From Pseudomonas marincola (GTDB lineage Bacteria; Pseudomonadota; Alphaproteobacteria; Sneathiellales; Sneathiellaceae): a stretch of DNA of 64,000 nucleotides. Shown here piece by piece: positions 5,575 through 35,774 of the stretch. The translations under genes and the position numbers were made by a program. The notes under the pieces were generated by a model. The model was not told the origin of the DNA. It ran no database searches and worked only from the letters and a program-made list of their open reading frames with translations. Position 1 is the first letter of the stretch, and each line of letters begins with the position of its first letter. The stretch lies in the NCBI GenBank assembly GCA_036960775.1, contig JBALWO010000001.1, forward strand, positions 162,334-226,333. The letters run 5' to 3'.

Positions 5575-5589
5575 ATTGATATAAATGAT
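5575..5589. promoter_or_regulatory. LysR-type box (T-N11-A), copy 1
   Basis: ATTGATATAAATGAT directly upstream of the LysR start; 12/15 identical to the copy upstream of phnW. Confidence 0.65.
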
Positions 5590-5921
5590 AAAATAAACAA
5601 CTTGGATTTATATTATTGAGTGAGTTATTATAACGTCAAGCATAATTGCGACTGTGTTATGAAATTTGCTGGATATTGTGGGAGTATGTCGGCATAATTT
5701 GGAAATACTGCGCAATTGTAGTGGTTTCGTTCATAATTCCAATGTTTACACAAATAATTGGGCAATGGACGGAAGATTGGGAGATCGTCACAAAACGATA
5801 ACAAACTGTATCTAGAAGGTTGCTCTGTAATAGGTCAAACAATTGTCGCCTATTCATAAGAAAAATGAGAGCCAACTTGATACTTGTACATTTTATATGT
5901 CTAACAGAAGGGGTTTTGAAC

Positions 5922-6959
5922 ATGAAATCACATATTATGAAAGCCGTGCTTGCGAGCGCAACAGGCGCATTTGTTGGCGCAACAGCGTTTGCAACAGTAG
6001 CGTCAGCGGCTGATACCTTGACAGTTTATACGGCTGTTGAAGCAGAAGATCTTAAGAAATACGCAAAAAATTTCAATAAAGATCATCCAAACATTAAAAT
6101 CAAATGGGTGCGGGATTCTACGGGTATTATTACGGCAAAACTTCTTGCTGAAAAGAATAACCCAAAAGCTGATATCGTTTGGGGCTTAGCTGCAACAAGC
6201 TTAATGCTTCTTAAAGAAGAAGGTATGCTTGAAGGTTATTCACCAAAGGGTGTTGAAAAGCTTGATCCTAAATTCCGCGATTCCGATAGCCCAACAAGCT
6301 GGACTGGTATGGATGCTTGGGTTGCATCAGTCTGCTTTAACACAGTTGAAGCTAAAAAAGCTGGTTTGCCAGCACCAACATCTTGGCAAGATCTGACTAA
6401 GCCCGTTTATAAAAACCAGATCATTATGCCTAACCCGAATTCATCAGGTACAGGCTTCCTTGACGTTTCTTCATGGTTGCAGATCTTCAAAGAAGATGGT
6501 GGCTGGAAGTTTATGGATGAACTGCATGTGAATATTGCACGTTACACTCATTCAGGATCGAAACCTTGTAAACTAGCAGCTGCTGGTGAAATCCCTATTG
6601 GTATTTCGTTCGCATTCCGCGGCGCGAAGTCCAAAGCTAAAGGTGCTCCTTTAGAAGTTATCGTACCATCAGAAGGTGTTGGTTGGGACATGGAAGCAAC
6701 GGCTATCCTAAAAGGTTCCAAAAACATGGCAGCAGCAAAAACTCTTGCTGATTGGACTGTTACGAAAAAAGCGAATGAAATGTACAACAAGGGTTACGCA
6801 GTTGTGGCGTATCCAGGCGTTGCTAAACCAGTTAAGCATTTCCCAGCTGAAATCGCGACAAGCATGATCGACAACGATTTTGCGTGGGCAGCATCTAACC
6901 GTAAACGCATCCTGTCTGAATGGCAGAAACGTTACGATTCAAAATCTGACCCAAAATAG
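5922..6959 (+). CDS. phnS: 2-aminoethylphosphonate ABC transporter substrate-binding protein (PhnS2/AepX type)
   Basis: Signal peptide; 'LTVYTAVE', 'WVRDSTGIITAKLLAEKNNPKAD', 'MPNPNSSGTGF', 'HSGSKPC'. Start set to ATG 5922 after GAAGGGG. Confidence 0.88.
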   Translation: MKSHIMKAVLASATGAFVGATAFATVASAADTLTVYTAVEAEDLKKYAKNFNKDHPNIKIKWVRDSTGIITAKLLAEKNNPKADIVWGLAATSLMLLKEEGMLEGYSPKGVEKLDPKFRDSDSPTSWTGMDAWVASVCFNTVEAKKAGLPAPTSWQDLTKPVYKNQIIMPNPNSSGTGFLDVSSWLQIFKEDGGWKFMDELHVNIARYTHSGSKPCKLAAAGEIPIGISFAFRGAKSKAKGAPLEVIVPSEGVGWDMEATAILKGSKNMAAAKTLADWTVTKKANEMYNKGYAVVAYPGVAKPVKHFPAEIATSMIDNDFAWAASNRKRILSEWQKRYDSKSDPK

Positions 6960-6977
6960 TCGGAAAAGATGTCTAAA

Positions 6978-7010
6978 GGAGGCCTTCGCTTGATTTGAGC
7001 GGAGGCCTTC
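6978..7010 (+). terminator. Intra-operon hairpin after the SBP gene (mRNA stabiliser or partial terminator)
   Basis: AGGCCTTCGCT-TGATTTG-AGCGGAGGCCT (one G-U pair) followed by TCATTTT. Confidence 0.65.
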
Positions 7011-7054
7011 ATTTTAATCGCGGTCGCCCCTGCCGGATAAGTGTGAGCTATAGT

Positions 7055-8155
7055 ATGAAAAATGATACCGACAACCAACAGGACGAAACTTACCTTCAAG
7101 TTCGTAACGTCACAAAAATGTTTGGAACTTTTGCAGCGCTCAAAGACATCTCACTTGATGTGAACGAGGGAGAGTTCGTTTGTTTCCTCGGACCATCCGG
7201 ATGCGGAAAAACAACTTTGTTACGCGCAATTGCGGGTCTCGATATTCAGACCCATGGTAAAGTCTTCCAAGGCGGACGTGAAATTTCTGATCTACCCGCC
7301 TCTGAACGCGATTTTGGGATTGTTTTTCAATCTTATGCGTTGTTCCCAAACCTCTCAGTCAATGACAACGTTGGCTATGGCTTGGTAAATGTCGGAACAA
7401 GTAAAGCCGATACCCATACAAGGGTAGTGGAGCTTCTCGCGCTGGTCGGTTTGGAAGATCAAGGCGATAAGTACCCCGCTCAATTATCAGGTGGTCAGCA
7501 ACAGCGTGTTGCATTAGCACGTGCGCTCGCCATGTCTCCAGGACTTCTTCTCCTTGACGAACCCCTTTCTGCGCTGGATGCTAAAGTTCGTGTGCATTTA
7601 CGCCATGAAATGAAAGAGCTCCAACAACGCTTAGGCGTTACAACCGTTATGGTGACACATGATCAGGAAGAAGCCCTGACGATGGCAGACCGAATTGTTG
7701 TGATGAATGATGGAAATATTGAGCAAGTCGGCTCACCAGAAGAAATTTACGGAAATCCAGCCAGTCCGTTTGTGGCAGAGTTCGTCGGAACGATGAATTT
7801 CCTTAAGGCGACTAAAGGCGAAAATAGTCAAATTATGTTGGGAACTCATATCCTGACACTTAATGACGCTGAAAAAGCAAAATTGAACGGACCGTCTGTT
7901 CTTGCCTGCGTGCGACCAGAAGATATTCTCGTGCGCGGAGTTGATGACAGCACGGCCAATTCATTCGACACAAAAGTCAAAAGCCTAGAGTTTTTGGGAT
8001 CATTCTGCCGGGCCACCTTGGTTTACGGTGCGGAAGATACGGAACTACTAGCAGATTTCTCGATTAACCTTGTTCGTGACAAGGGTGTGGAAGAGGGCGG
8101 CACTGTTCGCATAGCGCTTCCAGCAAATAGTATTCATATTTTTTCAGCCGGGTGA
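7055..8155 (+). CDS. phnT: 2-AEP ABC transporter ATP-binding subunit
   Basis: Walker A GPSGCGKT, signature LSGGQQQR, Walker B LLLLDE, C-terminal TOBE-like region. Start set to ATG 7055. Confidence 0.9.
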   Translation: MKNDTDNQQDETYLQVRNVTKMFGTFAALKDISLDVNEGEFVCFLGPSGCGKTTLLRAIAGLDIQTHGKVFQGGREISDLPASERDFGIVFQSYALFPNLSVNDNVGYGLVNVGTSKADTHTRVVELLALVGLEDQGDKYPAQLSGGQQQRVALARALAMSPGLLLLDEPLSALDAKVRVHLRHEMKELQQRLGVTTVMVTHDQEEALTMADRIVVMNDGNIEQVGSPEEIYGNPASPFVAEFVGTMNFLKATKGENSQIMLGTHILTLNDAEKAKLNGPSVLACVRPEDILVRGVDDSTANSFDTKVKSLEFLGSFCRATLVYGAEDTELLADFSINLVRDKGVEEGGTVRIALPANSIHIFSAG

Positions 8156-9867
8156 GTAATATGACAGATCAAACTTTGTCTTCTGCAAGCCCTGCCATTG
8201 TCAAACCGAAGCTAAGCCGTGACGATTATGTTATGCGGGCCTTTGTCTTGGTTATTGGCTTATGGCTGGTTGTGACCTTGCTAATGCCGCTTTATGCCAT
8301 GCTGTCAAAAAGCGTGCAGAATAAAGACGGCCTCTATATTGGCCTGACGAATTACATTGAGTATTTTTCGACGCCAGCCTTATTTTATTCCATTAATAAT
8401 AGTTTCTTTATTGCCTTTTTAACGACCGCAATAACCATCAGCTTAGCTTCTGTTTTTGCTTTTATCCTTTCCCGTTCAACAATTCCGGGTAAGGGTATTT
8501 TTAAAAGTATCGCATTGCTTCCTTTATTGGCGCCTTCGTTGCTTCCAGGTATCTCTTTCGTCTATCTATTTGGACGTCAGGGGATCTTGAAAGGTCTCAT
8601 GGGGGATTACAGTATCTATGGCCCCATTGGTATCGTAATGGGAGAGGTTTTCTATACTTTCCCTCATGCGTTGATGATTTTGGTGGCGGCCTTTTCAATT
8701 GCTGATGCGCGTCTCTATGAGGCCGCAGAAGTTCTTCGTTCAAGCCGCATCAGAACCTTTTTCACTGTCACTTTGCCCGGCATCAAATATGGACTAATCA
8801 GTGCAATTTTTGTTGTCTTCACATTGGTTATCACCGACTTTGGTATCCCAAAAGTGATCGGCGGCCAATATAATGTTTTGGCGACTGATATTTATAAACA
8901 AGTGATCGGACAACAGAACTTTCAAATGGGTGCTGTGGTCAGTGTTGTTTTGTTGTTTCCAGCTATTCTGGCCTTCGCGGTGGACCGTTTCGTTCAGCGG
9001 AAACAGGTTGCGATGCTGACGGCGCGTGCTGTGCCGTATGAGCCAAAACCTCACACTTTGCTTAACCGTATGTTCTTTTTATATTGCTGCATAATCGCCA
9101 TTATGATTGTGGGCACTATCGGTATGGCCGGATATGCGTCTTTCGTGACGTTTTGGCCCTATAACCTTGAGCTTTCACTTAACAACTATGACTTTGATGT
9201 TATGGATGGCGGCGGTTGGGGGTCTTTCTATAACTCTCTTGAATTGGCGGCTTATACTGCCGTGATAGGGACCTCGGTCATCTTTACCGGTGCCTATATG
9301 GTGGAGAAAGCCAAAGGGTTTGGTCTTATCCGGGGAATTATACAGTTCTTCTGTATGATCCCCATGGCCGTTCCTGGAATGGTTCTGGGCCTTGCCTATA
9401 TCTTCTTCTTCAACCATCCGGATAATCCGCTGGGCTTTATTTATGGCACAATGCCGATCTTGGTGATTGTTACCATTACCCATTTTTACACGGTTAGTCA
9501 TTTGACATCTATGACCGCGTTGAAGCAAATGGACCCAGAGTTTGAAACCGTATCTGCATCCCTTAAAGTGCCATTTTTCAAAACCTTTTTGAAGGTAACA
9601 GTGCCGGTTTGCCTGCCTGCAATTTTAGATATCTCTATCTATTTGTTCGTGAACGCAATGACAACGGTATCCGCGGTTATCTTCCTGTATTCATCTGATA
9701 CAGCACTGGCATCCATTGCCGCGCTGAACATGGATGACGCAGGCGATGTCGCACCGGCTGCGGCCATGTGTATGGTCATTGTTGCCACATCTGCAACAGT
9801 ACGTGTATTCCACGCTCTTCTTTCCAGAGGAATTGCAGCCAAAACACAAAAATGGCGGAAAAGATAA
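8152..9867 (+). CDS. phnU: 2-AEP ABC transporter permease (two fused permease domains)
   Basis: Two EAA-type loops ('LYEAAEVLRSS', 'FETVSASLKVP'), about 12 TM segments, 4-bp overlap with the ATPase gene. Confidence 0.88.
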   Translation: MSNMTDQTLSSASPAIVKPKLSRDDYVMRAFVLVIGLWLVVTLLMPLYAMLSKSVQNKDGLYIGLTNYIEYFSTPALFYSINNSFFIAFLTTAITISLASVFAFILSRSTIPGKGIFKSIALLPLLAPSLLPGISFVYLFGRQGILKGLMGDYSIYGPIGIVMGEVFYTFPHALMILVAAFSIADARLYEAAEVLRSSRIRTFFTVTLPGIKYGLISAIFVVFTLVITDFGIPKVIGGQYNVLATDIYKQVIGQQNFQMGAVVSVVLLFPAILAFAVDRFVQRKQVAMLTARAVPYEPKPHTLLNRMFFLYCCIIAIMIVGTIGMAGYASFVTFWPYNLELSLNNYDFDVMDGGGWGSFYNSLELAAYTAVIGTSVIFTGAYMVEKAKGFGLIRGIIQFFCMIPMAVPGMVLGLAYIFFFNHPDNPLGFIYGTMPILVIVTITHFYTVSHLTSMTALKQMDPEFETVSASLKVPFFKTFLKVTVPVCLPAILDISIYLFVNAMTTVSAVIFLYSSDTALASIAALNMDDAGDVAPAAAMCMVIVATSATVRVFHALLSRGIAAKTQKWRKR

Positions 9868-11270
9868 TGTCCACAGTTGCAGAAGTTACAGAAACACGTC
9901 CTCATCAATCAGAAGGGGACGTGAATTTCTCCGCACGGCGAAAAGAATGGGCTGCCCGCAATATTGACGCGGCAACAGCCACTCTTCTCAAGCGAGATTC
10001 AGATGCCTTTTTGCATCAATCGGTTTCCAGCCCGTGCCTTAACAGCATCAAATCCGCTGAAGGCGCCTATATTATCGATGGGCAGGGACGCCGTCTTTTG
10101 GATTTCCACGGTAACAATGTTCATCACATTGGATATGGTCATCCAAGACTAAAAGCAGCGATTACGAAACAAATGGACGATCTGTCTTTTGCTCCGCGCC
10201 GTTTCACCTGCGACCCTGCAGTTGAACTTGCTGAAAAGTTGGCAGAAATATCACCGGGGGATTTGTCAAAAGTCCTTTTTGCCACGGGTGGATCAGATGC
10301 CATTGAGATGGCATTGAAAGTAGCGCGCGCAAAAACAGGCCGGTTTAAAACGATCTCTTTCTGGGATGCGTTTCACGGAGCAGGATTTGGTGCCTCCAGT
10401 ATTGGAGGAGAACAATTATTCCGCGGCCAAGCAATTGGCCCGCTTCTTCCAGGAACAGAGCATGTGGCGCCTTATGCTTGCTACCGATGCCCCTACGGAT
10501 ATGAAGTCGATGCAAATGGACAGCCAAATCAGCAAATGTGTAAAACCACTTGCGCTAACATGATCCGTTATGTTCTTGAAAAAGAAGGTAACGTTGCCGC
10601 TGTGATTGCGGAACCTGCTCGCGCAGTTCCTTATACGCCGCCTCCTGGGTTTTGGAAGATGGTACGCGAAGCATGTAATGAGGCTGGGGCTTTGTTGATT
10701 TTTGACGAGATCCCAACGGGTCTTGGAAAAACAGGCCGCCTTTTTGCCTGTGATCATGATGATGTTGTTCCAGATATATTGGTAATGGGTAAGGCTCTTG
10801 GCGGCGGAATATTACCAATCGCTGCAACGCTTTGCCGTCCAGAACTTGATGTTCTGGGAGATTATGCAATTGGTCATTATACCCATGAGAAAAATCCGGT
10901 GACTACGCGGGCCGCTCTGACAACCATTGAAATCATCGAAGATGAAGGTCTTGTTGAGAATGCTGATAAAATCGGATCATATGCGCTAGAACGTATGCAT
11001 GACATGAAAGATAAGTATTCATTGATCGGTGATGTGCGTGGGCGCGGTTTCCTTCTTGGGCTGGAGCTCGTGACGGATCGTGAGACAAAAGAGCCTGCAA
11101 AAGATCAGGCTGAAGAAATTCTCTATAGGGCTTTTGATGCAGGTTTGAGCTTCAAAACAACCATGGGCAATGTTCTGACTTTGACCCCACCGCTGATCAC
11201 CACAAGAGAGCAGATGGACTTTGCTCTTGATATCCTTGATGACGCTATCGGTGATCTCTCCGCGCGTTAA
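9867..11270 (+). CDS. pbfA: Class-III PLP enzyme, probable (R)-1-hydroxy-2-aminoethylphosphonate ammonia-lyase
   Basis: 'SEGDVN', 'FLHQSVSSPCL', 'DFHGNNVHHIGYGHP', 'FDEIPTGLGKTG', PLP lysine in 'MGKALGGG'. TAATG overlap with the permease; upstream of phnW. Confidence 0.85.
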   Translation: MSTVAEVTETRPHQSEGDVNFSARRKEWAARNIDAATATLLKRDSDAFLHQSVSSPCLNSIKSAEGAYIIDGQGRRLLDFHGNNVHHIGYGHPRLKAAITKQMDDLSFAPRRFTCDPAVELAEKLAEISPGDLSKVLFATGGSDAIEMALKVARAKTGRFKTISFWDAFHGAGFGASSIGGEQLFRGQAIGPLLPGTEHVAPYACYRCPYGYEVDANGQPNQQMCKTTCANMIRYVLEKEGNVAAVIAEPARAVPYTPPPGFWKMVREACNEAGALLIFDEIPTGLGKTGRLFACDHDDVVPDILVMGKALGGGILPIAATLCRPELDVLGDYAIGHYTHEKNPVTTRAALTTIEIIEDEGLVENADKIGSYALERMHDMKDKYSLIGDVRGRGFLLGLELVTDRETKEPAKDQAEEILYRAFDAGLSFKTTMGNVLTLTPPLITTREQMDFALDILDDAIGDLSAR

Positions 11271-11287
11271 TTTTACATATAAGTTTA

Positions 11288-11302
11288 ATCGATATATTTG
11301 AT
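11288..11302. promoter_or_regulatory. LysR-type box ATC-N9-GAT, copy 2, upstream of phnW
   Basis: ATCGATATATTTGAT inside the inverted repeat TTTAATC-N9-GATTAAA (11284-11306). Confidence 0.7.
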
Positions 11303-11315
11303 TAAAAATAGCAAT

Positions 11316-11344
11316 TTGACTTATCCTTGGCGGAAGCGCCATAT
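11316..11344 (+). promoter_or_regulatory. Putative sigma70 promoter of phnW
   Basis: TTGACT-N17-CCATAT, 13 bp downstream of the LysR box. Confidence 0.5.
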
Positions 11345-11386
11345 GGGGCATCAAAGCCATTTGCCCTTTGAAAAAGGAGAGGGATA

Positions 11387-12571
11387 GTGACCAAGCATTC
11401 AGTTACAAATATGGAATATTCAACAAGTGAGGGAGTATTCCAAATCGGCTCAGAGCCATATCTTTTGACGCCAGGTCCATTGACAACGGCGCCGTCAACC
11501 AAGGCGGCCATGTTGAAGGATTGGGGCTCCTGGGATGATGAATTTAAGGCTGTGACAGCGGAAATTCGGAGCCGCCTTATTGCCATGTGTAACGGCGGTG
11601 ATGATTATGACTGTGTGCCCATGCAGGGCAGCGGTACATTCTCTGTTGAAGCTGCATTGGCATCCTTTATTCCAAAAGATGGGAAAGCGCTTATTTTGAT
11701 GAACGGTGCTTATGGCGCTCGTTCAGCAAAAACGCTTGATTATATTGGCCGGGACTATGTGACCTTGGACAAGGGCGATTATCTACCGCCTATGCCTGAA
11801 GAAGTTGATGCAATTCTGTCTGAAAACCCTGATGTGACCCATGTGGTTGTTGTGCATTGCGAGACAAGTTCAGGTATTTTGAACCCGCTTCAAGGCATTT
11901 CTGATGTCGTACATGGGCGGGGATTGAAACTAATCGTCGACAGCATGAGTGCTTTCGGTGCGGTTCCTGTTGATGTAAATGACATCCCTTTCGAAGCGCT
12001 CGTCTCATCTGCTAATAAATGTATCGAAGGTGTACCGGGATTCGGTTTCATTCTTGCAAAGAAAACAGCTCTTGAAGCCGCGAAAGGAAACAGTCATTCC
12101 TTAAGCCTAGATCTTCATGATCAGTGGGCAAATATGAATAAAACCGGTCAGTGGCGTTTTACGCCTCCAACTCATACGGTCGTTGCGTTCCTAGAAGCGT
12201 TGCGCTTGCATGAAGCTGAAGGCGGTGTTCAAGGCCGCCTTGGCCGATATACTGAAAATCGAGACATATTAGTTTCAGGAATGCGGGGTCTTGGGTTCGA
12301 AACCCTCTTGGAAGATGAGTGGTTATCCCCTATTATCACCACCTTCTTTAGTCCAAACGATCCCAAGTTTGATTTTACTCTATTCTATAATGAAATTAAA
12401 TCTCGCGGATTTATCATCTATCCCGGAAAACTGACAGTTGCAGATAGTTTCCGTGTTGGATGTATTGGCGCATTAGATGCGACTGTAATGCGCGGTGTTG
12501 TTAAAGCCGTCAAAGATAGTTGTGAACATATGGGGGTGGTTAATTTTGGACCACCTGACGGAGTGAAATAA
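11387..12571 (+). CDS. phnW: 2-aminoethylphosphonate:pyruvate transaminase
   Basis: 'LLTPGPLTT', '[11 protein letters not shown]', '[12 protein letters not shown]', 'DSMSAFG', '[12 protein letters not shown]', 'QWRFTPPTH', 'IYPGK'; GTG start after AGGAGAGG. Confidence 0.95.
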
Positions 12572-12578
12572 GAAAACA

Positions 12579-14273
12579 GTGGATGCGACATCAGTACTGA
12601 TCAGTTTGCTAGGAGGTGTTTCCCTTCTGCTTTGGGGCCTTAGAATGGTCAATACAGGCGTCACGCGCGCCTATGGCCGTGAACTTGGAAGGATCCTGAA
12701 TTTCAGTTTGAAAAACAGGGTAAATTCATTCTTCGGCGGTCTTGGTGTCACCATGTTGTTGCAAAGTAGTACCGCAACGGCGCTCCTAACAGCATCATTT
12801 GCAGGCAGAGGTCTTGTTACAGCCTCTGCCGGTATTGCCGTGATGCTGGGAGCCGATGTCGGCACTACACTGGTTGCGCAGGTCCTGAGTTTTGATTTAT
12901 CTTGGCTTGCGCCTGTAATGCTGTTCGTCGGCTTTGTTCGTCACTCCACCGCAAAATCCACACGCGCTAAAAACCTTGGAAGAATTTTCTTAGGTCTTGG
13001 CATGATGCTGACAGCGCTTAAGTTGCTGGTACTGGCATCGGGCCCTATTCGGGATTCTGAGGTCGCACAATTCGTGTTTAGCTCCCTGTCAGGAGAGCCA
13101 GTTCTCACCATTATTATTGGCGCCTTGATCACTTTCGTGGCCCATTCAAGTCTTGCAACAGTGCTTTTCATCCTGACTTTGGTTGCAACCGGCGGAGTGC
13201 CAATGGACGTAGCGTTGGCTATGATATTGGGCGCAAATTTGGGCGGATCAATACCACCAGTTCTTGCGACAATGAACGCAGACGCTCCCTCAAGGCGGCC
13301 ACCGCTCGGTAATTTTATATGTCGATTGATTGCTGTTTTTGCCGTCCTGCCGTTCCTTGATCTGCTGGAGCCTGAGCTGATGAAATTTGCAGCAGACCCC
13401 GCGCGCCAAGTTGTGAATTTCCACACAGCTTTTAATCTGGGTCTTGCAGCTATATTTATATTCTTCACGGGTCCTCTTGGGCGTTTAACGGAAAAACTAA
13501 TCCCTGAGAAAGTTGACAATGATAGCGCCGCGCCGCGCCCAATTCATCTGGACCGCGCAGCCCTTGAAAGCCCGCAGCTTGCCATGGCAAACGCCGTGCG
13601 TGATACATTACGCATGGGGGATGTTGCCGAAAAAATGTTCCGTGATTTTCAAGACGCGTTTGATAAGAACGATAGTAAACTTCTTCAAAAGGTGCGGGAT
13701 GCTGACGATGGCATTAAAGAGTTTAACGCAGGTGTTAAAAGCTATTTGACGGAACTAGGCCGTGAAATGCTGGAAGAGCAAGACGAAAAACGCTGCACCG
13801 AGATTATGACATTTACGACAAATATGGAAAATGTCGGAAATATTGTCGTTCTAAATATGGGCGAACTGCTGGAGCGGAGCACAAATCATCAAGTGGCTTT
13901 TTCCAAACAAGACACCGAAGATCACAGCAAACTGTTCGATATGGTTCTCGCCAATCTGAAGCTATCCTTTAGTGTTTTCCTTACCAGAGAAGCAGCTGCC
14001 GCGAGAAGCTTAATCGCTCAAAAGCAAATACTTCGGGATAAAGAGCAACTCGCCGTGAACTCTCATTTAGAGAGATTGCGCGCTGACGGGAATATGGATG
14101 AGGTTTCCAGCGCTATGCATCTGGGATTGTTGAGTGATCTACGCAGGATCAATTCGATGATTACTTCTGTTGCTTACCCAATTGTTGCTGAGCAAGAAAA
14201 CAAGGCAAAAAAATCAAAGAAAAATGAGAAAACCAAATCTGACGACGGCTTAGACCCCGCAGCTAATCTCTGA
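12579..14273 (+). CDS. Na+/Pi cotransporter family protein with PhoU-like C-terminal domains (YjbB/NptA type)
   Basis: Repeated 'LQSSTAT' and 'AHSSLAT' motifs, 'LGADVGTT', 'GANLGGS'; helical cytoplasmic C-terminus. Confidence 0.9.
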   Translation: MDATSVLISLLGGVSLLLWGLRMVNTGVTRAYGRELGRILNFSLKNRVNSFFGGLGVTMLLQSSTATALLTASFAGRGLVTASAGIAVMLGADVGTTLVAQVLSFDLSWLAPVMLFVGFVRHSTAKSTRAKNLGRIFLGLGMMLTALKLLVLASGPIRDSEVAQFVFSSLSGEPVLTIIIGALITFVAHSSLATVLFILTLVATGGVPMDVALAMILGANLGGSIPPVLATMNADAPSRRPPLGNFICRLIAVFAVLPFLDLLEPELMKFAADPARQVVNFHTAFNLGLAAIFIFFTGPLGRLTEKLIPEKVDNDSAAPRPIHLDRAALESPQLAMANAVRDTLRMGDVAEKMFRDFQDAFDKNDSKLLQKVRDADDGIKEFNAGVKSYLTELGREMLEEQDEKRCTEIMTFTTNMENVGNIVVLNMGELLERSTNHQVAFSKQDTEDHSKLFDMVLANLKLSFSVFLTREAAAARSLIAQKQILRDKEQLAVNSHLERLRADGNMDEVSSAMHLGLLSDLRRINSMITSVAYPIVAEQENKAKKSKKNEKTKSDDGLDPAANL

Positions 14274-14282
14274 GTTACTTCA

Positions 14283-15152
14283 ATGAACCTATTTGATTTT
14301 GAGTTTCGTCAACTGGACGCTGATGATGCCGATGCTTTCTTCGGTATTGTTAGTGATGCTGATTGGGATTTTACTAAGCAAACCTGCCACTGCCTTTTGG
14401 CTTCAGGGACAGTTTTTGCAGCTTTTGATAGCGACGGACGAATGGCAGCTACGGTTGCTATTAATACTTACGACAAGTCAATTGCCTTTATAGGTGCAGT
14501 CATTACTCGAAAATTATCTCGGGGACGCGGACTAGCAACTCGCCTATTAGACCTAGCAGAAAATCATGCTAATCAGGCCAATGTTCCTACGGCCCTAATC
14601 TCAACACCAATGGGATTGCCAGTGTATGAAGGTCGAGGGTACGAAACGCAATCGAGCTGCGTTAAATTTCTTCGAAAACATGACCCCGCAGTGACTTTAC
14701 CTGTGCCATCTTCAGGCTACCAGACGCAACCTCTGTCTACTGCGACCCTGCCTGAAATACTGCAATTGGATGAAGAACTGATAGGTGTTGATCGATCGCG
14801 GGTTTTAAACGCAATGATGAATGCGGGCTCCACAGGTGTTGTCTTATATGATGCTGAAATTCGAAAAGCAGTTGGCTATGCATGTGTGAGCGCTCGTGCA
14901 TCTATGAAAATTATCGGCCCTGTAATTGCTGAAAATGAACAAATAGCAACAGCTTTATGTGCGGATATATGTTCCAAAAACCAAGACGATATTCGGATCG
15001 ATTGCTTGTCGCATCAAACAGGTTTTATTGAACTCCTTGAAAATATAGGCTTCAAAAAAGAGGGTGAAGCGCCGCTAATGACCAAGGGTGGTCAGTCAGG
15101 TCTATTCGTAAACCCGAGCGCTTATGGGATCATCTCGCAAGCATTCGGATGA
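14283..15152 (+). CDS. Two-domain GNAT acetyltransferase
   Basis: Acetyl-CoA motif 'RGRGLATRLL', 'GLPVYEGRGY'; second domain 'IIGPVIAENEQIA'; ends 'SQAFG'. Confidence 0.8.
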   Translation: MNLFDFEFRQLDADDADAFFGIVSDADWDFTKQTCHCLLASGTVFAAFDSDGRMAATVAINTYDKSIAFIGAVITRKLSRGRGLATRLLDLAENHANQANVPTALISTPMGLPVYEGRGYETQSSCVKFLRKHDPAVTLPVPSSGYQTQPLSTATLPEILQLDEELIGVDRSRVLNAMMNAGSTGVVLYDAEIRKAVGYACVSARASMKIIGPVIAENEQIATALCADICSKNQDDIRIDCLSHQTGFIELLENIGFKKEGEAPLMTKGGQSGLFVNPSAYGIISQAFG

Positions 15153-17623: not shown

Positions 17624-17624
17624 G

Positions 17625-21777: not shown

Positions 21778-21780
21778 CGA

Positions 21781-23234: not shown

Positions 23235-23254
23235 TTTAAAAGTTTGGGTGGATC

Positions 23255-25288: not shown

Positions 25289-25289
25289 C

Positions 25290-27984: not shown

Positions 27985-28831
27985 TCTTTCCTCCCAATAT
28001 GCCGTTGGGGCGCAGACGAATAACCAAGATGGCAAGAATAAAGACGGCAATTTGTGCAGCAACCGGTGAGATCCAAACCGTTAGTAAACTGTTGGTTCCG
28101 CCAACGGCACCGCCGCCAACAAGCACGCCTGCAAGTGGGCCTGCACCGCCCACAAGAATTGATAAAAATCCAGGGATCAAATAACCCAATCCCATTTGAG
28201 GATCAACACTGATGGTTGGTGCAATTAGGGCGCCCGCAAGTCCTGCAAGGGCAGTCCCCACCACAAAACTCCATCGATATAGTTTGCGAGTATTTATGCC
28301 AAGACCGGCGGAGGTGTCGGGCCTCGCGATGACAGCACGTGCCATTAAGCCAAAATCGGTTTTAAGAAATAGCCAGAAAGTGCCCGCGATCAACGCAATG
28401 GATATTCCCATGACAATCAAGCGGTACATTGGATATGAAAAATCGCCGAGAACTAGCGTTGTATCAAGGGGGCTTGTAACACTTTGTGCCTCTGGACCGA
28501 AAACGAGGACAATACCCTGTTTCAAGGCAATAGAGAGACCCCAAGTTGCCAATATTGTATCGAGCGGGCGCAAATAAATGTGGCGGATTAATAAGGCTTC
28601 AATTATGAAACCTAGAAAACCCACGACCATAGGAGCAAGAACTAAGCCTGCAACAAAGGGCAGCCCCGCCGATTGTGTCAGAACCATCACATAGGCCCCG
28701 ATCATAAACAACTCACCATGGGCCATATTGATGACGCCCATCATGCCAAAGACAATCATCAAGCCCAATGCAATTAACACAAGGATTAAGACATAGGACA
28801 TGGCGTCGAATAGAGGGATTATTATATCCAT
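27974..28831 (-). CDS. Amide/urea-type ABC permease (UrtB/LivH-like)
   Basis: 'GMMGVINMAHGELFMIGAY', 'LDTILATWG', 'ILVGG'. Confidence 0.9.
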   Translation of the reverse strand: MDIIIPLFDAMSYVLILVLIALGLMIVFGMMGVINMAHGELFMIGAYVMVLTQSAGLPFVAGLVLAPMVVGFLGFIIEALLIRHIYLRPLDTILATWGLSIALKQGIVLVFGPEAQSVTSPLDTTLVLGDFSYPMYRLIVMGISIALIAGTFWLFLKTDFGLMARAVIARPDTSAGLGINTRKLYRWSFVVGTALAGLAGALIAPTISVDPQMGLGYLIPGFLSILVGGAGPLAGVLVGGGAVGGTNSLLTVWISPVAAQIAVFILAILVIRLRPNGILGGKNEK

Positions 28832-28842
28832 AATTGCCGCCC

Positions 28843-29544
28843 CTAAATTGTCAAATAACGATGCAGCAGGGCATCGTCTTGGTTTAATTCAGCCATACTA
28901 CAACTTGCCATTAGCCGGCCGTTTTCCATAAATAAGATGTCTTCAGCCATTGTTTTTACCATATGGACATTCTGTTCGACGAGCAGGATCGTAAGTCCGG
29001 TTTCAGTCGCGATTTGAGACAGTTTCAATCCAATTTCATGGACAATGCTGGGCTGAATACCTTCTGTGGGCTCGTCCAGAAGCAGAACCTCCGGGCGGGT
29101 CATTAACGCCCGTGCCATAGCCAGTATTTGTTGCTGACCGCCTGAAAATGTTCCGGCTTTTTGATCGCGTCGTTCGTGTAAAATTGGGAACCAGTCATAT
29201 ATTTGTGGCAGCAGTGATAAGTTTTTGATTGAGGAGCCTAGCGCCGCTAAGCGTAGGTTTTCATATACTGAAAAATCTTCAAACACTTCCCGGCCTTGGG
29301 GGACATAGCCAATTCCGGATTTAGATATCAAATAAGTAGGCAAGTTTTCAAGCGGGCTGCCTTTAAGCAGAATTTGCCCTGATTTTATAGGTATCAAGCC
29401 CATAATAGCTTTAAGGAGGGTTGTTTTTCCCATTCCATTTCGACCCATGAGTGCCGTGATTTGGCCTTTCGGCAGTGTGAATGTGAAATCATTGAGGACC
29501 ATTGCTTCGCCGTAACCGGCTTTCAATTGTTTTATTTCAAGCAT
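28843..29544 (-). CDS. ABC ATPase (UrtE/LivF-like)
   Basis: GRNGMGKT, 'YVPQGREVF', 'SGGQQQ', 'LLLDEPTEGIQPSIV'. Start set to ATG 29544 (8-bp overlap with the upstream gene). Confidence 0.9.
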   Translation of the reverse strand: MLEIKQLKAGYGEAMVLNDFTFTLPKGQITALMGRNGMGKTTLLKAIMGLIPIKSGQILLKGSPLENLPTYLISKSGIGYVPQGREVFEDFSVYENLRLAALGSSIKNLSLLPQIYDWFPILHERRDQKAGTFSGGQQQILAMARALMTRPEVLLLDEPTEGIQPSIVHEIGLKLSQIATETGLTILLVEQNVHMVKTMAEDILFMENGRLMASCSMAELNQDDALLHRYLTI

Positions 29545-30274
29545 GGTTTGAGCCTGCATTTCCAAAATACAATTCTTGAACATCTTTATCATTGCGGATC
29601 GTTTGAAAATCGCCGGATTTAAGGATGCTACCTCGTGCCATAACGGCAAGTGGGCATTGAAGTTGTTCTATAAAGCCAATGTCATGCTCAATCACCAACA
29701 CTGTAACGTCACCTTCCTTATTTATGCTTTTGATGAGCTCCGCAGTGGCAGCCGTTTCTATGGTAGTCATGCCGGCTGTGGGCTCGTCCAATAAAACCAG
29801 TTTGGGCGACTGGGCTAAAATCATTCCGATTTCTAACCATTGTTTTTCACCATGAGATAATTGATCGGCGATTAAGTCGGATTTTTCAGTCAAATTGATC
29901 AAGGACAATATTTCAATCAGTGACTGCTTGACCTGTTTTCGTGACTGAGAAGAACTTGACTGGAGAGTAGGAACCTTCAGATTTTGAAAAACGGTGAGTT
30001 CTGAAAAAATGGCAGGAACTTGAAATTTACGGCCCATGCCCATGCGGGCAATTTCCTGAGCCGGCAGGGGCGTGATGTCCACGCCTTCAAACAAGATAGT
30101 CCCCATAGTGGGTGCGAATGTTCCGCTGATGAGGTTAAAAATCGTTGATTTACCACAGCCATTGGGTCCTATAAGGGCGGTTAAGCTGCCTTTTTCAAGA
30201 CTTAGCGAAAAGTCGTCTACTGCTTTTAGGCCACCGAATCTCTTGGTAAGGGAATGAAGCTCAAGAAATGACAT
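29537..30274 (-). CDS. ABC ATPase (UrtD/LivG-like)
   Basis: GPNGCGKS, 'GRKFQ', 'LSHGEKQWLEIG', 'LLDEPTAG'. Start set to ATG 30274. Confidence 0.9.
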   Translation of the reverse strand: MSFLELHSLTKRFGGLKAVDDFSLSLEKGSLTALIGPNGCGKSTIFNLISGTFAPTMGTILFEGVDITPLPAQEIARMGMGRKFQVPAIFSELTVFQNLKVPTLQSSSSQSRKQVKQSLIEILSLINLTEKSDLIADQLSHGEKQWLEIGMILAQSPKLVLLDEPTAGMTTIETAATAELIKSINKEGDVTVLVIEHDIGFIEQLQCPLAVMARGSILKSGDFQTIRNDKDVQELYFGNAGSNHA

Positions 30275-30286
30275 GTTAGTTACTCT

Positions 30287-30445
30287 TAGACATAAGTAGA
30301 CATACGAAACTGAGCGTCGAAACATCAGTAAACAAACGAAATTTTTATAGGCGTACAAAAGGTAATGCCCATTTTTAGCTCATAATCCCAAATAAAACTT
30401 ATTTTTTTAGTCGCAGCACTTGAAGTAGATCCGAAATTAGACATA
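30287..30445. repeat. Three copies of TAGACATA in the divergent promoter region
   Basis: Exact copies at 30287-30294, 30297-30304 and 30438-30445. Confidence 0.6.
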
Positions 30446-30531
30446 AAGATCGCATCTGAGGTCTAGATGTAAATCATTTTTTATGATTTATTATTGTTTG
30501 TAAACGAATAAAATATAAATGGGGGTCGTCG

Positions 30532-31701
30532 ATGTTAAAACTTACACGTAGAAAACTTCTCGTATCAGCAAGTGCCGCAGCCGCGGTAAGTAGTATCGGT
30601 ATGCCAGCGATAGCAGCAGGCAAAACAATTAAAATTGGTGCAGTGCAGCCTTTCTCTGGCGGGTTGGAGCTTTTTGGCAAACAAGCCCAAATGGGTCTTG
30701 ATCTAGCGACTGCAGAAATTAATGCGGCTGGCGGTATCATGGGCCATAAGGTCGAAATGCTATATGAAGATAACAAAACGGACCCAAAAACATCAGTTGA
30801 GCGTGCCCGCAAAGTTATTCAGCGCGACGATGTGATGGCTGTGTCAGGCCCGATTACGTCTGCTGCGCGTGATGCAATGGCAGGAACCATGAAGCGTTTG
30901 AAGACGCCCCTTCTATACGCAACGAATTATGAGGGCGGCATCTGCGATCGTTATTTATTCTCGTTTAATACCGTGCCTAATCAAGATACAGCGCCGCTTA
31001 TTCCTTATCTAAAGGATCAAGGTATTGGAAACAGCTATTACATGTTTGGTGCCGATTATGTTTGGCCGCGCAATATGTTTAAGGCTGCGGGCGAGATGAT
31101 CAAGCAGGTGGGCGGACAAGCTCTCGGCGAAGAATACACACCGTTTGGGGTAAAAGATTTCTCGTCTGTTATTCGGAAAATTGCAGATTCTGGCGCGAAA
31201 ATCCTATTGTTCGCGCTTCCAGGCGCAGATGGTATTACTTTCATTAAACAAGCTGAAGAATTTGGTTTGATGAAAAAGGTCACCATCGCATTTTTGGGGT
31301 TTGCTGAAACTTATCTCGGTGCGTTTGGCGCAGGGAAGGGTGAGGGCATGTATGCAGGCCTTCCGATGGTTGCCAATTCTAAAGAAGCTGGTGTGCAGGA
31401 GTTTGTATCGAAAATCCGCAAACGCGAAGGTGATGATGCCATCGTCTCATTCTACGTTATGACCCATTACAATTCCCTAATGGCTGTAAAGGCTGGAATG
31501 GAAAGAGCTGGCAAAGTGGACAAAGAAAGCCTAATCGACGGTATGGCGGGACTTTCGTTCGACATTCCCACAGGTAAAGCAAGCATTACAGCAGAAGATC
31601 ACCATGTGGCCATGAATATGTATATTGGCAAAACAGGCGGCGGTACGCTGAATGTCGAGAAATCACTGGGACTGATTACGCCTTCTCCTCAGTGCAGCTG
31701 A
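30532..31701 (+). CDS. Periplasmic binding protein, AmiC/UrtA family, Tat-exported
   Basis: Twin-arginine signal 'TRRKLL'; 'PFSGGLELFG', 'YATNYEGG', 'GADYVWPR'. Confidence 0.88.
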   Translation: MLKLTRRKLLVSASAAAAVSSIGMPAIAAGKTIKIGAVQPFSGGLELFGKQAQMGLDLATAEINAAGGIMGHKVEMLYEDNKTDPKTSVERARKVIQRDDVMAVSGPITSAARDAMAGTMKRLKTPLLYATNYEGGICDRYLFSFNTVPNQDTAPLIPYLKDQGIGNSYYMFGADYVWPRNMFKAAGEMIKQVGGQALGEEYTPFGVKDFSSVIRKIADSGAKILLFALPGADGITFIKQAEEFGLMKKVTIAFLGFAETYLGAFGAGKGEGMYAGLPMVANSKEAGVQEFVSKIRKREGDDAIVSFYVMTHYNSLMAVKAGMERAGKVDKESLIDGMAGLSFDIPTGKASITAEDHHVAMNMYIGKTGGGTLNVEKSLGLITPSPQCS

Positions 31702-31725
31702 ACCTAGAAAATATGTGAGGATAAA

Positions 31726-32454
31726 ATGCAAACTCAAAAAATAACAAAAGACCTCAGCGATGTTATGCCTTTGGCATTCTGCGCTTTAGATCTAAAGGCT
31801 GATTGTAAGCGGGTTGGGCTGGTTATTGTTGACGAAATCAATGGGTTTGCAACGGTGGGGGCGGGAAATCTCGCCCCGCCAACTCCCAATGAACAAGTGT
31901 CAACCATGGTTTCAGAAACTGATCAGTTGGCGCGTGATTTTACAGGGGAAAATTGGCCAATACTTGCGTTTTTGGACACTCATGTTCCCGGCAAGGAAGA
32001 GCCGCCCTATCCGCCGCACTGCGAAAGCGGGACCGGTGAAGAAGAGCTGGTGCCTGAGCTGAAATGGCTAGAAGATGATGCGAACACGACATTGGTGCGC
32101 AAGGATTGCATCAATGGTTTCATCGGTGCGTTTGCTGATGACGGAACAAATGCAGTTGTTGAATGGGTAAAGGCCAATGGTATAACGGATTTGTTGGTGG
32201 TGGGTATCTGCACTGATATTTGCGTGATGGATTTCGTGCTTACCAGTTTAAGCGCCCGTAATCACGAAATGATGCCGGGACTTACCAATATTCATGTTTA
32301 CGACAAAGGGTGTTCCACATACGATTTACCCAAAGAAGTCGCGCTGGAAGCTGGCTTGCCAGCAGTTGCCGCCCATCCTCAAAATATTACACATTATATG
32401 GGGCTTTATTTTATGGCTTCGCGCGGTGCAAATCTGGTGAATAATATTATCTAA
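31726..32454 (+). CDS. Cysteine hydrolase (isochorismatase fold), probable nicotinamidase of the plant NIC1 type
   Basis: Catalytic D ('IVDEING'), K ('RKDCING') and C ('GICTDICV'); metal ligands 'FLDTH' and 'YPPHC'; strong recalled resemblance to Arabidopsis NIC1. Confidence 0.8.
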   Translation: MQTQKITKDLSDVMPLAFCALDLKADCKRVGLVIVDEINGFATVGAGNLAPPTPNEQVSTMVSETDQLARDFTGENWPILAFLDTHVPGKEEPPYPPHCESGTGEEELVPELKWLEDDANTTLVRKDCINGFIGAFADDGTNAVVEWVKANGITDLLVVGICTDICVMDFVLTSLSARNHEMMPGLTNIHVYDKGCSTYDLPKEVALEAGLPAVAAHPQNITHYMGLYFMASRGANLVNNII

Positions 32455-32552: not shown

Positions 32553-32933
32553 ATGCGTTTCGAAAAATTGAGAACTTGGGCAAGGGCAGTTAAGCGAGAT
32601 GTTATCGCTTTGTGGATTGCGGCAAGAGACGCTCGAACTCCTTGGCATGCTAAAGCTGTTGCCATTATTGTCGCGGCTTACGCCTTGTCTCCTATTGATT
32701 TGATCCCGGACTTCATTCCAATTATCGGTTATTTGGATGACATTCTTCTCGTTCCGCTTGGCATTCTTCTCGCGATATGGCTGATCCCGGCTTCGTTGAT
32801 GGCGGAATTTCGGAAGAAGGCCGATGAACTTGAAAAGCGACCCGTTAGTCGTATTGCAGCAGTGCTAGTCGTTCTAGCTTGGGTAATCTGCGGGTTATGG
32901 TTGATGCACTGGTATCTGAATTTTAATGCATAA
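32553..32933 (+). CDS. YkvA / DUF1232 membrane protein
   Basis: 'AYALSPIDLIPDFIPIIGYLDD'. Confidence 0.9.
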   Translation: MRFEKLRTWARAVKRDVIALWIAARDARTPWHAKAVAIIVAAYALSPIDLIPDFIPIIGYLDDILLVPLGILLAIWLIPASLMAEFRKKADELEKRPVSRIAAVLVVLAWVICGLWLMHWYLNFNA

Positions 32934-32960
32934 ATTAAACTTATAAAAATGATTATTAAT

Positions 32961-32975
32961 ATCGATTTTACTTAT
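32961..32975. promoter_or_regulatory. LysR-type box (T-N11-A), copy 3, upstream of phnA
   Basis: ATCGATTTTACTTAT, 10/15 identical to copy 2. Confidence 0.55.
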
Positions 32976-33005
32976 TCATAATCTGTTTCTATACTCTTCA
33001 TAATC

Positions 33006-33056
33006 CTGTAACAGTGCTGTAGCATCGTTGCAGATTGCGTTGTAAAATAATATAAC
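33006..33056 (+). promoter_or_regulatory. Pho-box-like direct repeats and sigma70 promoter of phnAY
   Basis: CTGTAAC-agtg-CTGTAGC-atcg-TTGCAGA at an 11-bp period; TTGCAG-N17-TATAAC. Confidence 0.55.
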
Positions 33057-33090
33057 CGCAAAGAATTTTTGATGAGTAAAGGACAGATGA

Positions 33091-34329
33091 ATGTCGAAAG
33101 ATAATGTGACGGTAAATGGCCGTGAATATGCATGGCCCAAACAACCAGTCGTCGTCGTATGTATTGACGGCAGCGAGCCTGCATATATCGAGCAAGCCAT
33201 CAGAGATGGTGTGATGCCGTATATGGAGAAAGCATTGGCCTCTGGCGCTGATTTGCGCGCTGAATGTGTTGTGCCAAGCTTTACGAACCCGAACAATCTT
33301 TCAATTGTCACCGGACAACCACCGAAAGTACACGGGATTTGCGGCAACTATTTTTATGACGTTGAAGCCGACGCAGAGGTCATGATGAATGACCCGAAAT
33401 TCTTGCGTGTACCGACAATCTTTAAAGCCTTTTTTGATCAAGGCGCGAAAATTGCCGTTGTCACTGCGAAAGATAAACTTCGCACATTGCTCGGTAATGG
33501 TCTTGATGTGACAAGTGGCCGTGCTATCTGTTTTTCATCTGAAAAATCTGCAGAAGCCACACTCGCGGAAAATGGTATTGATGACGCTGCAAGCTGGCTC
33601 GGACGCGAAGTCCCATCTGTTTATTCCGCTGAATTGAGCGAATTTATTTTTGCCAGTGGCGTCAAATTGATGGATGAGTACAAACCAGATTTGATGTATC
33701 TCTCAACAACCGATTATATCCAGCATAAGCATGCGCCGGGAACTCCGGTTGCTAACGAATTCTATGCAATGCTTGATAAATATATGGCAGAGCTTGATGC
33801 GCGCGGCGCGGTTATCGCGCTCACGGCTGATCATGGTATGAAACCAAAATTTGGATCAGACGGACAGCCTGACGTTATCTACCTACAAGATGTTCTTGAT
33901 GAATGGTTGGGTGAGGGCGAAGCTCGTGTGATCCTTCCAATTACAGATCCATATGTTGTCCATCACGGTGCTCTAGGATCGTTCGCCACAGCCTACATTC
34001 CAGCAGATAAGCGCGCTGAAGTCATTGAACGCTTTAAATCTTTGGACGGGATTATGGAGAGCCTTTCTCGTGAAGATGGCTGTGCCAAATTCGAGTTACC
34101 TGAAGACCGTACTGGCGATATCATTTTGGTATCAACAGTGAATAAGGTGCTTGGTACAAGTGCAAGTCGGCATGATCTGTCTGCTCTAAAAGAGCCTCTT
34201 CGCTCTCACGGTGGTATTTCAGAACAAATTGTTCCGCTACTTTGTAACCGTCCTGCAGGTGCCATCGATGATGGTCGTCGTCTGCGGAATTTCGATATTT
34301 TCGATATGGCATTGAATTTCGCGCAATAG
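33091..34329 (+). CDS. phnA: Phosphonoacetate hydrolase
   Basis: 'VVVVCIDG', '[14 protein letters not shown]', '[15 protein letters not shown]', 'TADHGM', 'RSHGG'. Confidence 0.96.
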
Positions 34330-34337
34330 GAGACATC

Positions 34338-35774
34338 ATGGCTCAGGGAAGAAACGTTCGCAACGAGGCGATGAGAATTGCCGGTGAACATGTTACGACA
34401 GAAAATAGCATCGATGTCATCAACCCGTTCACCAAGGACGTGGTTGGAACTGTCCCTATGGGGCAGGTGGAACATGTTCGCAAAGCCTTTAAAGTGGCTG
34501 CTGAGTATCAGCCAACATTGTCGCGCCATCAACGATATGAAATTTTGCAAAAGGCCGCTGATATACTAGTTGCCAGAAAAGATGAAATTTCAGACGTTAT
34601 TACTTCTGAAGCCGGTCTTTGTAAGAAAGATAGCTTGTATGAAGTCGGACGGGCCTATGATGTGTTTAGTCTTTCTGCACGTCTTTGTATCATAGATGAT
34701 GGCGAGATTTATTCTTGCGACATCACGCCTCACGGTAAAGAACGTAAGATTTTCACTTTGCGGGAACCTCTTACTGCGATCAGTGCAATTACGCCCTTTA
34801 ACCATCCGTTAAATCAGGTGGCACATAAGATAGCTCCGTCAATTGCGACAAATAACTGCATGGTTCTAAAACCTACGGAAAAAACACCACTGACAGCACT
34901 CTTGCTGGCTGACGTGCTGTATGATGCTGGATTGCCGCCTGAAATGTTCCAGGTGGTAACGGGGCTTCCGGGTGACATTGCGGATGAAATGTTGACCAAT
35001 GAAAATGCAGAACTTGTAACCTTTACCGGCGGTGTTCCCATTGGGAAATACATCGCAGGAAAAGCGGGCTACAAGCGGAAAGTGTTGGAACTTGGTGGCA
35101 ATGATCCGCTGATTGTTATGAAAGATGCGGATCTTGAAAAAGCATCAGATCTAGCCGTTGCCGGTTCTTTCAAAAATTCGGGCCAGCGCTGCACTGCCGT
35201 TAAACGTATTTTGGTGGATGACAGTATTGCCGACGACTTCGTGGCACTTTTGACTGAAAAAGCGTCAAAAATGAAATATGGCAATCCCTACGATCCAGAA
35301 ATGGATATGGGTACTGTCATTAATGAAGCGTCTGCAATTCAGTTTGAAACCCGCGTAAATGATGCGATTTCCAACGGTGCTAAACTGACGTACGGCAATA
35401 TTCGTGACGGGGCTCTTTACTCGCCAACAGTTGTTGATCACGTTCCGTTTGATTGCGAATTGGTCCGCGAAGAAACTTTTGGACCCGTTGCGCCTGTTAT
35501 TCGCTTTAAAGATATTGATGATGCTATTCGCATTTCAAACTCCACTGCATTTGGTTTGTCATCCGGTGTTTGTACGGATAACTGGAAAAGCATTCAGCGT
35601 TTCATCAAAGAATTGAAAGTGGGCACGGTTAATGTCTGGGAGGTTCCGGGCTACCGTATCGAGATGTCCCCATTTGGCGGCATTAAAGATTCGGGTCTTG
35701 GTTACAAAGAAGGCGTGTTGGAAGCTATGAAAAGCTTTACCAATTTGAAGACTTATTCCCTACCTTGGGACTAA
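34338..35774 (+). CDS. phnY: Phosphonoacetaldehyde dehydrogenase
   Basis: ALDH motifs plus the PhnY-type '[14 protein letters not shown]', '[11 protein letters not shown]', '[17 protein letters not shown]'; 8 bp after phnA. Confidence 0.93.

Follow-up and report, generated by a model that had tools for sequence, protein, structure and literature searches.

A composite operator predicted for an AepR-type LysR regulator at three promoters of a split 2-aminoethylphosphonate gene set in Sneathiella

Results

Genes for 2-aminoethylphosphonate degradation

No biogenic phosphonate is more abundant in the sea than 2-aminoethylphosphonate (2-AEP), whose phosphate-insensitive, substrate-induced mineralization has been attributed to AepR-type regulators. 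The window analyzed here is a stretch of 64,000 nucleotides from a Sneathiella genome (Alphaproteobacteria, 3.79 Mb; assembly GCA_036960775.1, contig JBALWO010000001.1, positions 162,334 to 226,333 of the forward strand), and all coordinates below are positions in this window unless another contig is named. The 2-AEP degradation genes of this genome lie in two pieces, with a gap of 20.5 kb between the end of phnW (12571) and the start of phnA (33091). Three control regions of these genes contain a 46-bp composite element, labeled S1, S2, and S3, that is probably the operator of a single AepR-type regulator. The genes and elements are as follows.

4701..5567, minus strand, aepR-like LysR-family regulator gene (TIGR03339 phn_lysR, E 1.9e-100)
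5566..5611, plus strand, predicted composite operator S1 in the lysR/phnS2 divergent region (ATAAGTCCCATTGATATAAATGATAAAATAAACAACTTGGATTTAT); holds box 1 (5575-5589)
5922-6959, plus strand, phnS2, 2-AEP ATP-binding cassette (ABC) transporter (TIGR03261, 523 bits, above cut-off)
7055-8155, plus strand, phnT2, 2-AEP ABC transporter (TIGR03265, 519 bits, above cut-off)
8152-9867, plus strand, phnU2, 2-AEP ABC transporter (TIGR03262, 824 bits, above cut-off)
9867-11270, plus strand, pbfA, (R)-1-hydroxy-2-AEP ammonia-lyase (NF049939, 670 bits, above cut-off)
11279..11324, plus strand, predicted composite operator S2 before phnW (ATAAGTTTAATCGATATATTTGATTAAAAATAGCAATTTGACTTAT); holds box 2 (11288-11302)
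11387-12571, plus strand, phnW (NF010006, 557 bits, above cut-off)
12579-14273, plus strand, Na/Pi-cotransporter-family protein with a PhoU-like part (TIGR00704)
14283-15152, plus strand, two-domain GNAT protein (GNAT domain matches)
32930..32975, plus strand, predicted composite operator S3 before phnA (ATAAATTAAACTTATAAAAATGATTATTAATATCGATTTTACTTAT); box 3 (32961-32975) is its -35-proximal sub-element
33091-34329, plus strand, phnA, phosphonoacetate hydrolase (TIGR02335, 528 bits, above cut-off)
34338-35774, plus strand, phnY, phosphonoacetaldehyde dehydrogenase (TIGR03250, 826 bits, above cut-off)

Family scans bore out the gene identities proposed in an initial annotation of this DNA (LysR, transporter, PbfA, PhnW, PhnA, and PhnY), the transporter being PhnS2T2U2. 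All three enzymes of the PhnW-PhnY-PhnA pathway scored above their curated cut-offs, without the alternative enzyme PhnX, for which the genome contains nothing above cut-off (the top match to a PhnX model was 46 bits against a cut-off of 220). Because there is no PhnX in the genome, phosphonoacetaldehyde formed by PhnW and PbfA must pass via PhnY and PhnA, and co-induction makes sense given that PhnY and PhnA are the sole phosphonoacetaldehyde route. The phnW, Na/Pi-family, and GNAT genes (11387..15152) are separated by spacers of only 7-9 bp and are probably one transcription unit.

The best NCBIfam match of the regulator was TIGR03339 ("aminoethylphosphonate catabolism associated LysR") with 335.7 bits, the curated cut-off being 341.1 and the next family following at an E-value of 5.8e-45. 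Translation most likely begins with the ATG at 5567, conserved as M-x-Y-S-Q in orthologues. The protein is 44-58% identical to LysR proteins encoded next to phn genes in other alphaproteobacterial genera. Its gene is divergent from phnS2T2U2-pbfA-phnW, an arrangement also seen in relatives, and was the single match to an AepR-like LysR at E ≤ 1e-40 in this genome. No LysR gene was found in the neighborhood of phnA.

A 46-bp element at three control regions

The initial annotation had proposed a single conserved LysR box with T-N11-A geometry, represented by three related 15-mers. These 15-mers are present where it placed them (ATTGATATAAATGAT at 5575-5589, ATCGATATATTTGAT at 11288-11302, and ATCGATTTTACTTAT at 32961-32975), and the positions and genes described around them stand. 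The operator as drawn does not, having mixed two different sub-elements. Only the first two 15-mers are homologous to each other; the third is a -35-proximal sub-element, and the true phnA counterpart of boxes 1 and 2 is ACTTATAAAAATGAT at 32939-32953. Box 1, described as lying at the LysR start, is actually in the leader, 8-22 bp upstream of the ATG at 5567. A T-N11-A dyad does exist, but 9 bp upstream of the 15-mer at sites 1 and 2 and 31 bp upstream of it at site 3. Nor is the 15-mer a specific box: its degenerate form, ATYGATNTNNNTKAT, has 37 matches in the 3.79-Mb genome. Its register is not conserved in orthologues, where the ATYGAT letters and the T at position 2 vary and AT-N7-AT alone is invariant, so that the ATC-N9-GAT appearance of the 15-mer is made up of letters that vary in orthologous promoters. 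On the strength of the 37 matches and the lost register, the 15-mer was ruled out as the operator.

A longer element of 46 bp is common to all three sites and exceeds chance. S1, S2, and S3 align without gaps in one register and one orientation, with identities of 32/46 between S1 and S2, 33/46 between S2 and S3, and 27/46 between S1 and S3, and the two top plus-strand matches to S2 in the genome are S3 and S1. Each copy begins with a T-N11-A dyad, ATAA-N7-TkAT (TTAT in most orthologues), at 5566-5580, 11279-11293, and 32930-32944. The middle sub-element is AT-N7-AT, which corresponds to boxes 1 and 2, and the last is ATAnCrATTTkAyTTAT, which covers the -35 region and at phnA is box 3. The left dyad of S1 overlaps the lysR start codon, and the element as a whole spans the lysR start and leader.

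The window contains a fourth match to the degenerate 15-mer at 53151-53165 (ATCGATCTATTTTAT), without the flanking sub-elements of the composite operator. Repeats of TTCATAAT near phnA and in the lysR spacer were considered as an alternative box and rejected: 8 occur in the window against 4.3 expected, which is not significant, and they are not conserved.

Specificity within the genome and conservation in Sneathiella

The expectation that the motif would stand out from the AT-rich background held for the composite element, whose matrices rank the phnA and phnW sites as the top two genome-wide, above shuffled controls. Matrices were built either from orthologous sites without this genome or from 41 non-redundant aepR-upstream sites of other genera, and the null was a set of locally shuffled genomes with local AT content preserved. 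With the matrix of phnW-site orthologues the phnW site was first and the phnA site second at 31.3 bits (shuffle maxima 6.4-16.9 bits in 20 genomes). The matrix of phnA-site orthologues gave the reciprocal result, the phnA site being first and the phnW site second at 25.7 bits (shuffle maxima 11.4-21.8 bits). The matrix of the 41 non-Sneathiella sites also placed the phnA site first, at 31.4 bits, and the phnW site second, at 19.6 bits (shuffle maxima 9.7-17.3 bits).

Several additional genome matches (C85:8131, C82:13484, C99:79474, C9:129168, and C3:6590) lie in AT-rich spacers or inside non-phosphonate genes and were treated as chance. Outside the phn genes, C27:4028 on the minus strand matches both Sneathiella site matrices best, at 20.8 and 18.2 bits. 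It lies in a very AT-rich spacer between genes that, by sequence reading, resemble a PAS-type sensor and an iron-type alcohol dehydrogenase, faces the sensor-like gene, and is probably a chance match.

The control regions were aligned with the orthologous regions of Sneathiella genomes having the same split arrangement (14 sequences for lysR-phnS2, 13 for pbfA-phnW, and 11 for the region upstream of phnA). Every alignment contains a conserved block with an invariant AT-N11-AT-N7-AT followed by ATAnCrATTTkAyTTAT. Conservation inside the element and in the rest of the intergenic region was 0.78 and 0.60 for S1 (14 genomes), 0.86 and 0.62 for S2 (13 genomes), and 0.85 and 0.65 for S3 (11 genomes), S2 being the highest of the three. 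S1 is conserved but more degenerate than S2 and S3. A 17-mer, ATANCRATTTKNYTTAT, has 28 matches in 14 Sneathiella genomes, of which 25 are at phnW or phnA promoters, whereas its reversed control has 1. Sneathiella genomes of the contiguous type (lysR-phnW-phnA), whose LysR is only 45% identical, have the same layout in the lysR-phnW spacer (...TTATATgTCAATTTTAAATAACGATTTTACAAAT).

The three remaining 17-mer matches are not convincing regulon members. One (G025:C61) lies between a gene that, from its N-terminus, appears to encode a LysR and a membrane-protein gene that, by reading of the sequence, is taken to be a LysE/RhtB-type exporter; another (G030:C7) lies inside a gene; and for the third (G018:C16) the next gene is ~490 bp away and there is no upstream dyad.

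These data bear on the possibility that the likeness of the sites reflects shared ancestry or chance among AT-rich promoters and that phnA-phnY is expressed independently, for example upon induction by phosphonoacetate via another factor. The intergenic DNA is indeed AT-rich here and the 15-mer frequent, and PhnA of Pseudomonas fluorescens 23F is, as cited in PMC9311074, phosphonoacetate-inducible via its own adjacent LysR, PhnR. However, the locally shuffled genomes, in which local AT content is kept, never attain the cross-site scores, the 17-mer core is almost confined to these promoters in the 14 genomes, and purifying selection acts on the element between its diverging flanks. Moreover, no second phosphonate-type LysR was found in the genome. 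We regard this explanation as the least probable of those considered.

Two individual genomes illustrate variation around the element. In the Sneathiella genome G024 (C2:709900-713593; loci L015 and L087) there are no transporter genes between lysR and pbfA, lysR is directly divergent from pbfA, and S1 is kept ~200 bp away; the essential cis elements are therefore within the first ~130 bp. In Sneathiella glossodoripedis JCM 23214 (G016:C10:380489-381722; loci L072 and L073), phnA is broken by stop codons and frame changes, and the operator upstream of the broken gene (ATATCGATTTTGTTTAT) and the remaining arrangement are retained.

Association of the element with aepR in other genera

Alphaproteobacterial loci encoding aepR homologues were recovered by LysR alignment (79 loci). 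The core CGATTT[GT] occurs in the target orientation within 300 bp upstream of the LysR gene in 57 of the 79, against a control rate of 0.036 per 300 nt in the rest of those loci. Core-bearing loci include Mesorhizobium, Stappia, Hoeflea, Albidovulum, Pseudooceanicola, Terasakiella, and Rhodospirillales metagenome-assembled genomes. The divergent neighbor of nearly all these LysR genes is phnW, phnS2, pbfA, or a Na/Pi-family gene followed by phnW. The suggestion in the initial annotation that the site defines an operator for this regulator family thus found support in the core upstream of the 57 homologues, and we think it somewhat more probable than otherwise that the 46-bp element (core ATAAG-N6-YKAT ... 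A-A/T-CGATTT-G/T-AC) is a general AepR-family operator across Alphaproteobacteria.

The same survey bears on whether the shared element is bound by some other regulator, of PhoB type, GntR type, or global, with AepR acting at its own divergent promoter only. In favor of this, phnY is followed at a distance of 1.1 kb by a GntR gene with weak phnR_burk similarity, S1 is a weaker site than either S2 or S3, and the 2-AEP genes of Pseudomonas putida are also under PhoBR, NtrBC, and CbrAB (PMC9311074). Against this, the element tracks aepR rather than GntR or Pho genes, both in the 57 of 79 loci of many genera and in Sneathiella clusters of either type. The geometry of the element is that of a T-N11-A dyad, its predicted positions are typical of LysR-type regulators, and it is unlike the CTGTCAT direct-repeat Pho box. 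In addition, the pfkB gene between phnY and the GntR gene is not consistently beside phnA-phnY in relatives, and the downstream neighborhood is not a conserved part of the unit. Control by another regulator is for these reasons highly improbable.

A relative of the Na/Pi-family protein, 31-40% identical, is encoded within the 3-kb flanks of 13 of the 79 loci (L104, L107, L129, L130, L134, L139, L142, L145, L149, L151, L160, L165, and L168). It is the first gene divergent from aepR in 10 of the 13, with phnW next in most of those. The protein is distinct from the three described 2-AEP transporters (AepXVW, AepP, and AepSTU) and could export released phosphate or import substrate.

Predicted promoters and a model for regulation

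The promoter scan called promoters at phnA and lysR.

32967..32995, plus strand, predicted phnA promoter TTTACT-N17-TATACT; (C/T)ATACT is invariant in 11 genomes
5610..5639, minus strand, predicted lysR promoter, with -35 TTGACG at 5639-5634 and -10 TAATAT at 5615-5610

We infer a phnA transcription start near 33002, ~7 nt past the -10 sequence, which would place the center of the left dyad at about -65. Sneathiella group A keeps the lysR -35 sequence (GGTCAAG on the plus strand) without variation, and it is found again in some aepR loci of other genera. Facing the lysR promoter, a phnS2 promoter is predicted by eye, with no tool call, from a -35-like TTGGAT at 5602-5607 and a -10-like TATTAT at 5626-5631. 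At S2 the -35 sequence TTGACT (11316-11321) is followed 17 nt on by a conserved -10-like CCATAT (11339-11344), with the same spacing as at phnA.

S1 overlaps the lysR start codon and leader and faces the predicted lysR promoter, the layout of divergent autoregulation. Because S1 lies over the leader and start codon, autorepression is expected.

In the model that we favor, with a probability of roughly 0.8, a single AepR-type LysR binds one type of composite operator of ~46 bp at three promoters. AepR at S1 would drive the divergent phnS2T2U2-pbfA unit and repress its own gene, at S2 it would drive an internal promoter for phnW, the Na/Pi-family transporter, and GNAT, and at S3 it would drive the distant phnA-phnY operon. 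The dyad ATAA-N7-TkAT would be the recognition site, ~65 bp before the predicted start, followed by AT-N7-AT and then by ATAnCrATTTkAyTTAT as an activation-site-like element overlapping the weak -35. An inducer, either 2-AEP or a pathway intermediate, would shift the tetramer on the proximal element, and RNA polymerase could then use the weak -35. What the analysis shows is the elements themselves, how they are conserved, how specific they are genome-wide, and that they accompany aepR genes; that AepR binds them and activates transcription, where transcription starts, and which inducer acts are predictions. The proposal of the initial annotation that one LysR controls all three units is strongly supported by the comparative and statistical evidence, which points to shared control by this regulator.

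A variant of this model has AepR acting at S1 and S3 only, with S2 being no promoter but a conserved element, such as a roadblock or attenuation site or a relic operator, inside a single phnS2-to-GNAT transcript. The pbfA-phnW spacer is just 116 bp, and neither a σ70-type promoter nor a terminator was called in it. On the other hand, S2 is the best conserved element (0.86), its -35 TTGACT is near consensus and positioned as at the other two sites, and in G024 and many other genera phnW-type genes are directly headed by the element. We therefore consider the variant highly unlikely.

Several observations weigh against the three-promoter model. The LysR score is 5 bits under the TIGR03339 cut-off. 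S1 is the weakest site: the phnW-site matrix puts it at ranks 5-6 (15.8 and 11.9 bits) and the other-genera matrix gives it 14.8 bits, in both cases within the range of the shuffled maxima. The promoter scan, which follows E. coli rules, calls no promoter at phnW, where the -10 CCATAT is non-canonical, and with no terminator found in the pbfA-phnW spacer phnW could also be read through from pbfA. Finally, S1 and S3 are followed downstream by further conserved blocks, which hint at additional regulators. With regard to S1, a site that is borderline by score yet is a top-six match inside one pre-specified 350-bp spacer is unlikely to occur there by chance, and it was assigned because of its position, its footprint, and the ungapped 32/46 match.

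The stretch of ~285 nt from S1 to the phnS2 start contains two of these further blocks, at 5782-5800 (GTCAtAAAAc.ATAAC) and 5899-5913 (GTCTAACAGAAGGG), the second of which includes the ribosome-binding site. They may be a second promoter or the site of a nutrient-stress regulator; the ~285-nt phnS2 leader gave no Rfam match to a riboswitch or known RNA. At phnA, conservation runs on past the -10 sequence (32996-33015; CAtAATTCTGnAAyA in 11 genomes). The sequence here is CTGTAAC-AGTG-CTGTAGC, which is Pho box-like, and the first repeat alone is kept in relatives.

Comparison with known regulators

The regulators of 2-AEP operons have been named AepR (Murphy et al. 2021, PMC8316502; 2022, PMC9311074). 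According to these studies, a mutant of Pseudomonas putida BIRD-1 in aepR (AepR-WX) loses substrate induction of phnWX, and in most Alphaproteobacteria a contiguous aepXVW-phnWAY operon is preceded by a single aepR. The fragmented operons of BIRD-1 each have their own AepR, which the authors speculate acts on the adjacent operon only (PMC8316502, PMC9311074). As in the AepR systems of BIRD-1 and marine Alphaproteobacteria, the LysR-type gene studied here is divergent from 2-AEP transport and catabolic genes. Unlike in BIRD-1, one AepR apparently serves three promoters, of which two lie at distances of 6 and 27 kb from the aepR gene. In the literature naming AepR that was searched, including both papers, no operator for it is defined.

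PhnR of P. fluorescens 23F and PalR of Variovorax are likewise LysR-type and exert substrate-inducible, phosphate-independent control of C-P hydrolases. They differ in adjoining their hydrolase gene, whereas here phnA has no adjacent LysR, and they are phylogenetically distinct from AepR (PMC8316502).

The element was also compared with the operators of other LysR-type regulators. Classical operators of this type (CbbR, BenM/CatM, OccR, and AtzR) consist of a T-N11-A recognition site near -65 and an activation site at -35. The Sneathiella sites resemble them in having a T-N11-A dyad, ~50 bp of conserved DNA ending over a weak -35, and a regulator gene that is transcribed divergently and has its start and leader under the site, which implies autorepression. 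What differs is the sequence of the box, which is family-specific (ATAAG-N6-YKAT ... AACGATTTkAC), at positions predicted from sequence. The system thus appears to be an ordinary LysR-type regulon with textbook logic, in which an operator newly defined for the AepR family would be used three times by one regulator.

An operator described at the sequence level makes the single-regulator model testable by simple means, allows regulon membership to be predicted where phn genes are scattered, and flags recurrent accessory genes (the Na/Pi-family transporter and GNAT) as candidates for co-regulation. If it is general to AepR, 2-AEP regulons, including scattered ones, could be read directly from the genomes and metagenomes of marine bacteria. 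The strongest boxes of the split Sneathiella type are those at the distal phnW and phnA promoters, and the lysR-proximal box would be a decayed one; this would imply graded control by one regulator, tight for catabolism and looser for the transporter and for autoregulation.

Age of the split arrangement

The initial annotation had also suggested that the cluster was interrupted and yet stayed co-regulated. Synteny in relatives does not support a recent insertion into a phnWAY operon. The split arrangement is common to at least nine Sneathiella species, and in nine genomes with this cluster type lysR and phnA are 16-37 kb apart on the same contig. Of eight other genomes, five have a phnW-phnA gap of ~20 kb and the others one of 13-30 kb. 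Seven of eight other genomes checked have a hydantoinase gene between phnW and phnA, and in all eight other split-type (group A) genomes checked the Na/Pi gene follows phnW by 9-14 bp. The block from the Na/Pi gene to the isochorismatase gene also occurs in genomes whose lysR-phnW-phnA cluster is contiguous and elsewhere: in G006 the two genes are at 492 and 511 kb, and in G035 they are 1.8 kb apart. It follows from the sharing of the split by these species and from the presence of the block in genomes of the contiguous type that the split is of long standing and that the gap holds variable DNA native to the genus.

The genes between the two pieces encode the Na/Pi-family transporter, GNAT, GDPD, a DUF1232 protein, a molybdenum hydroxylase, hydantoinases A and B, a Liv-type ABC transporter, and an isochorismatase-family protein. 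Positions 16784-32454, inside the gap, resemble one catabolic island made up of the molybdenum hydroxylase, the hydantoinases, a DUF1185/AA_synth protein, the Liv-type transporter, and the isochorismatase-family protein, an amidase; this island is absent or shorter in some relatives (G024 and G035).

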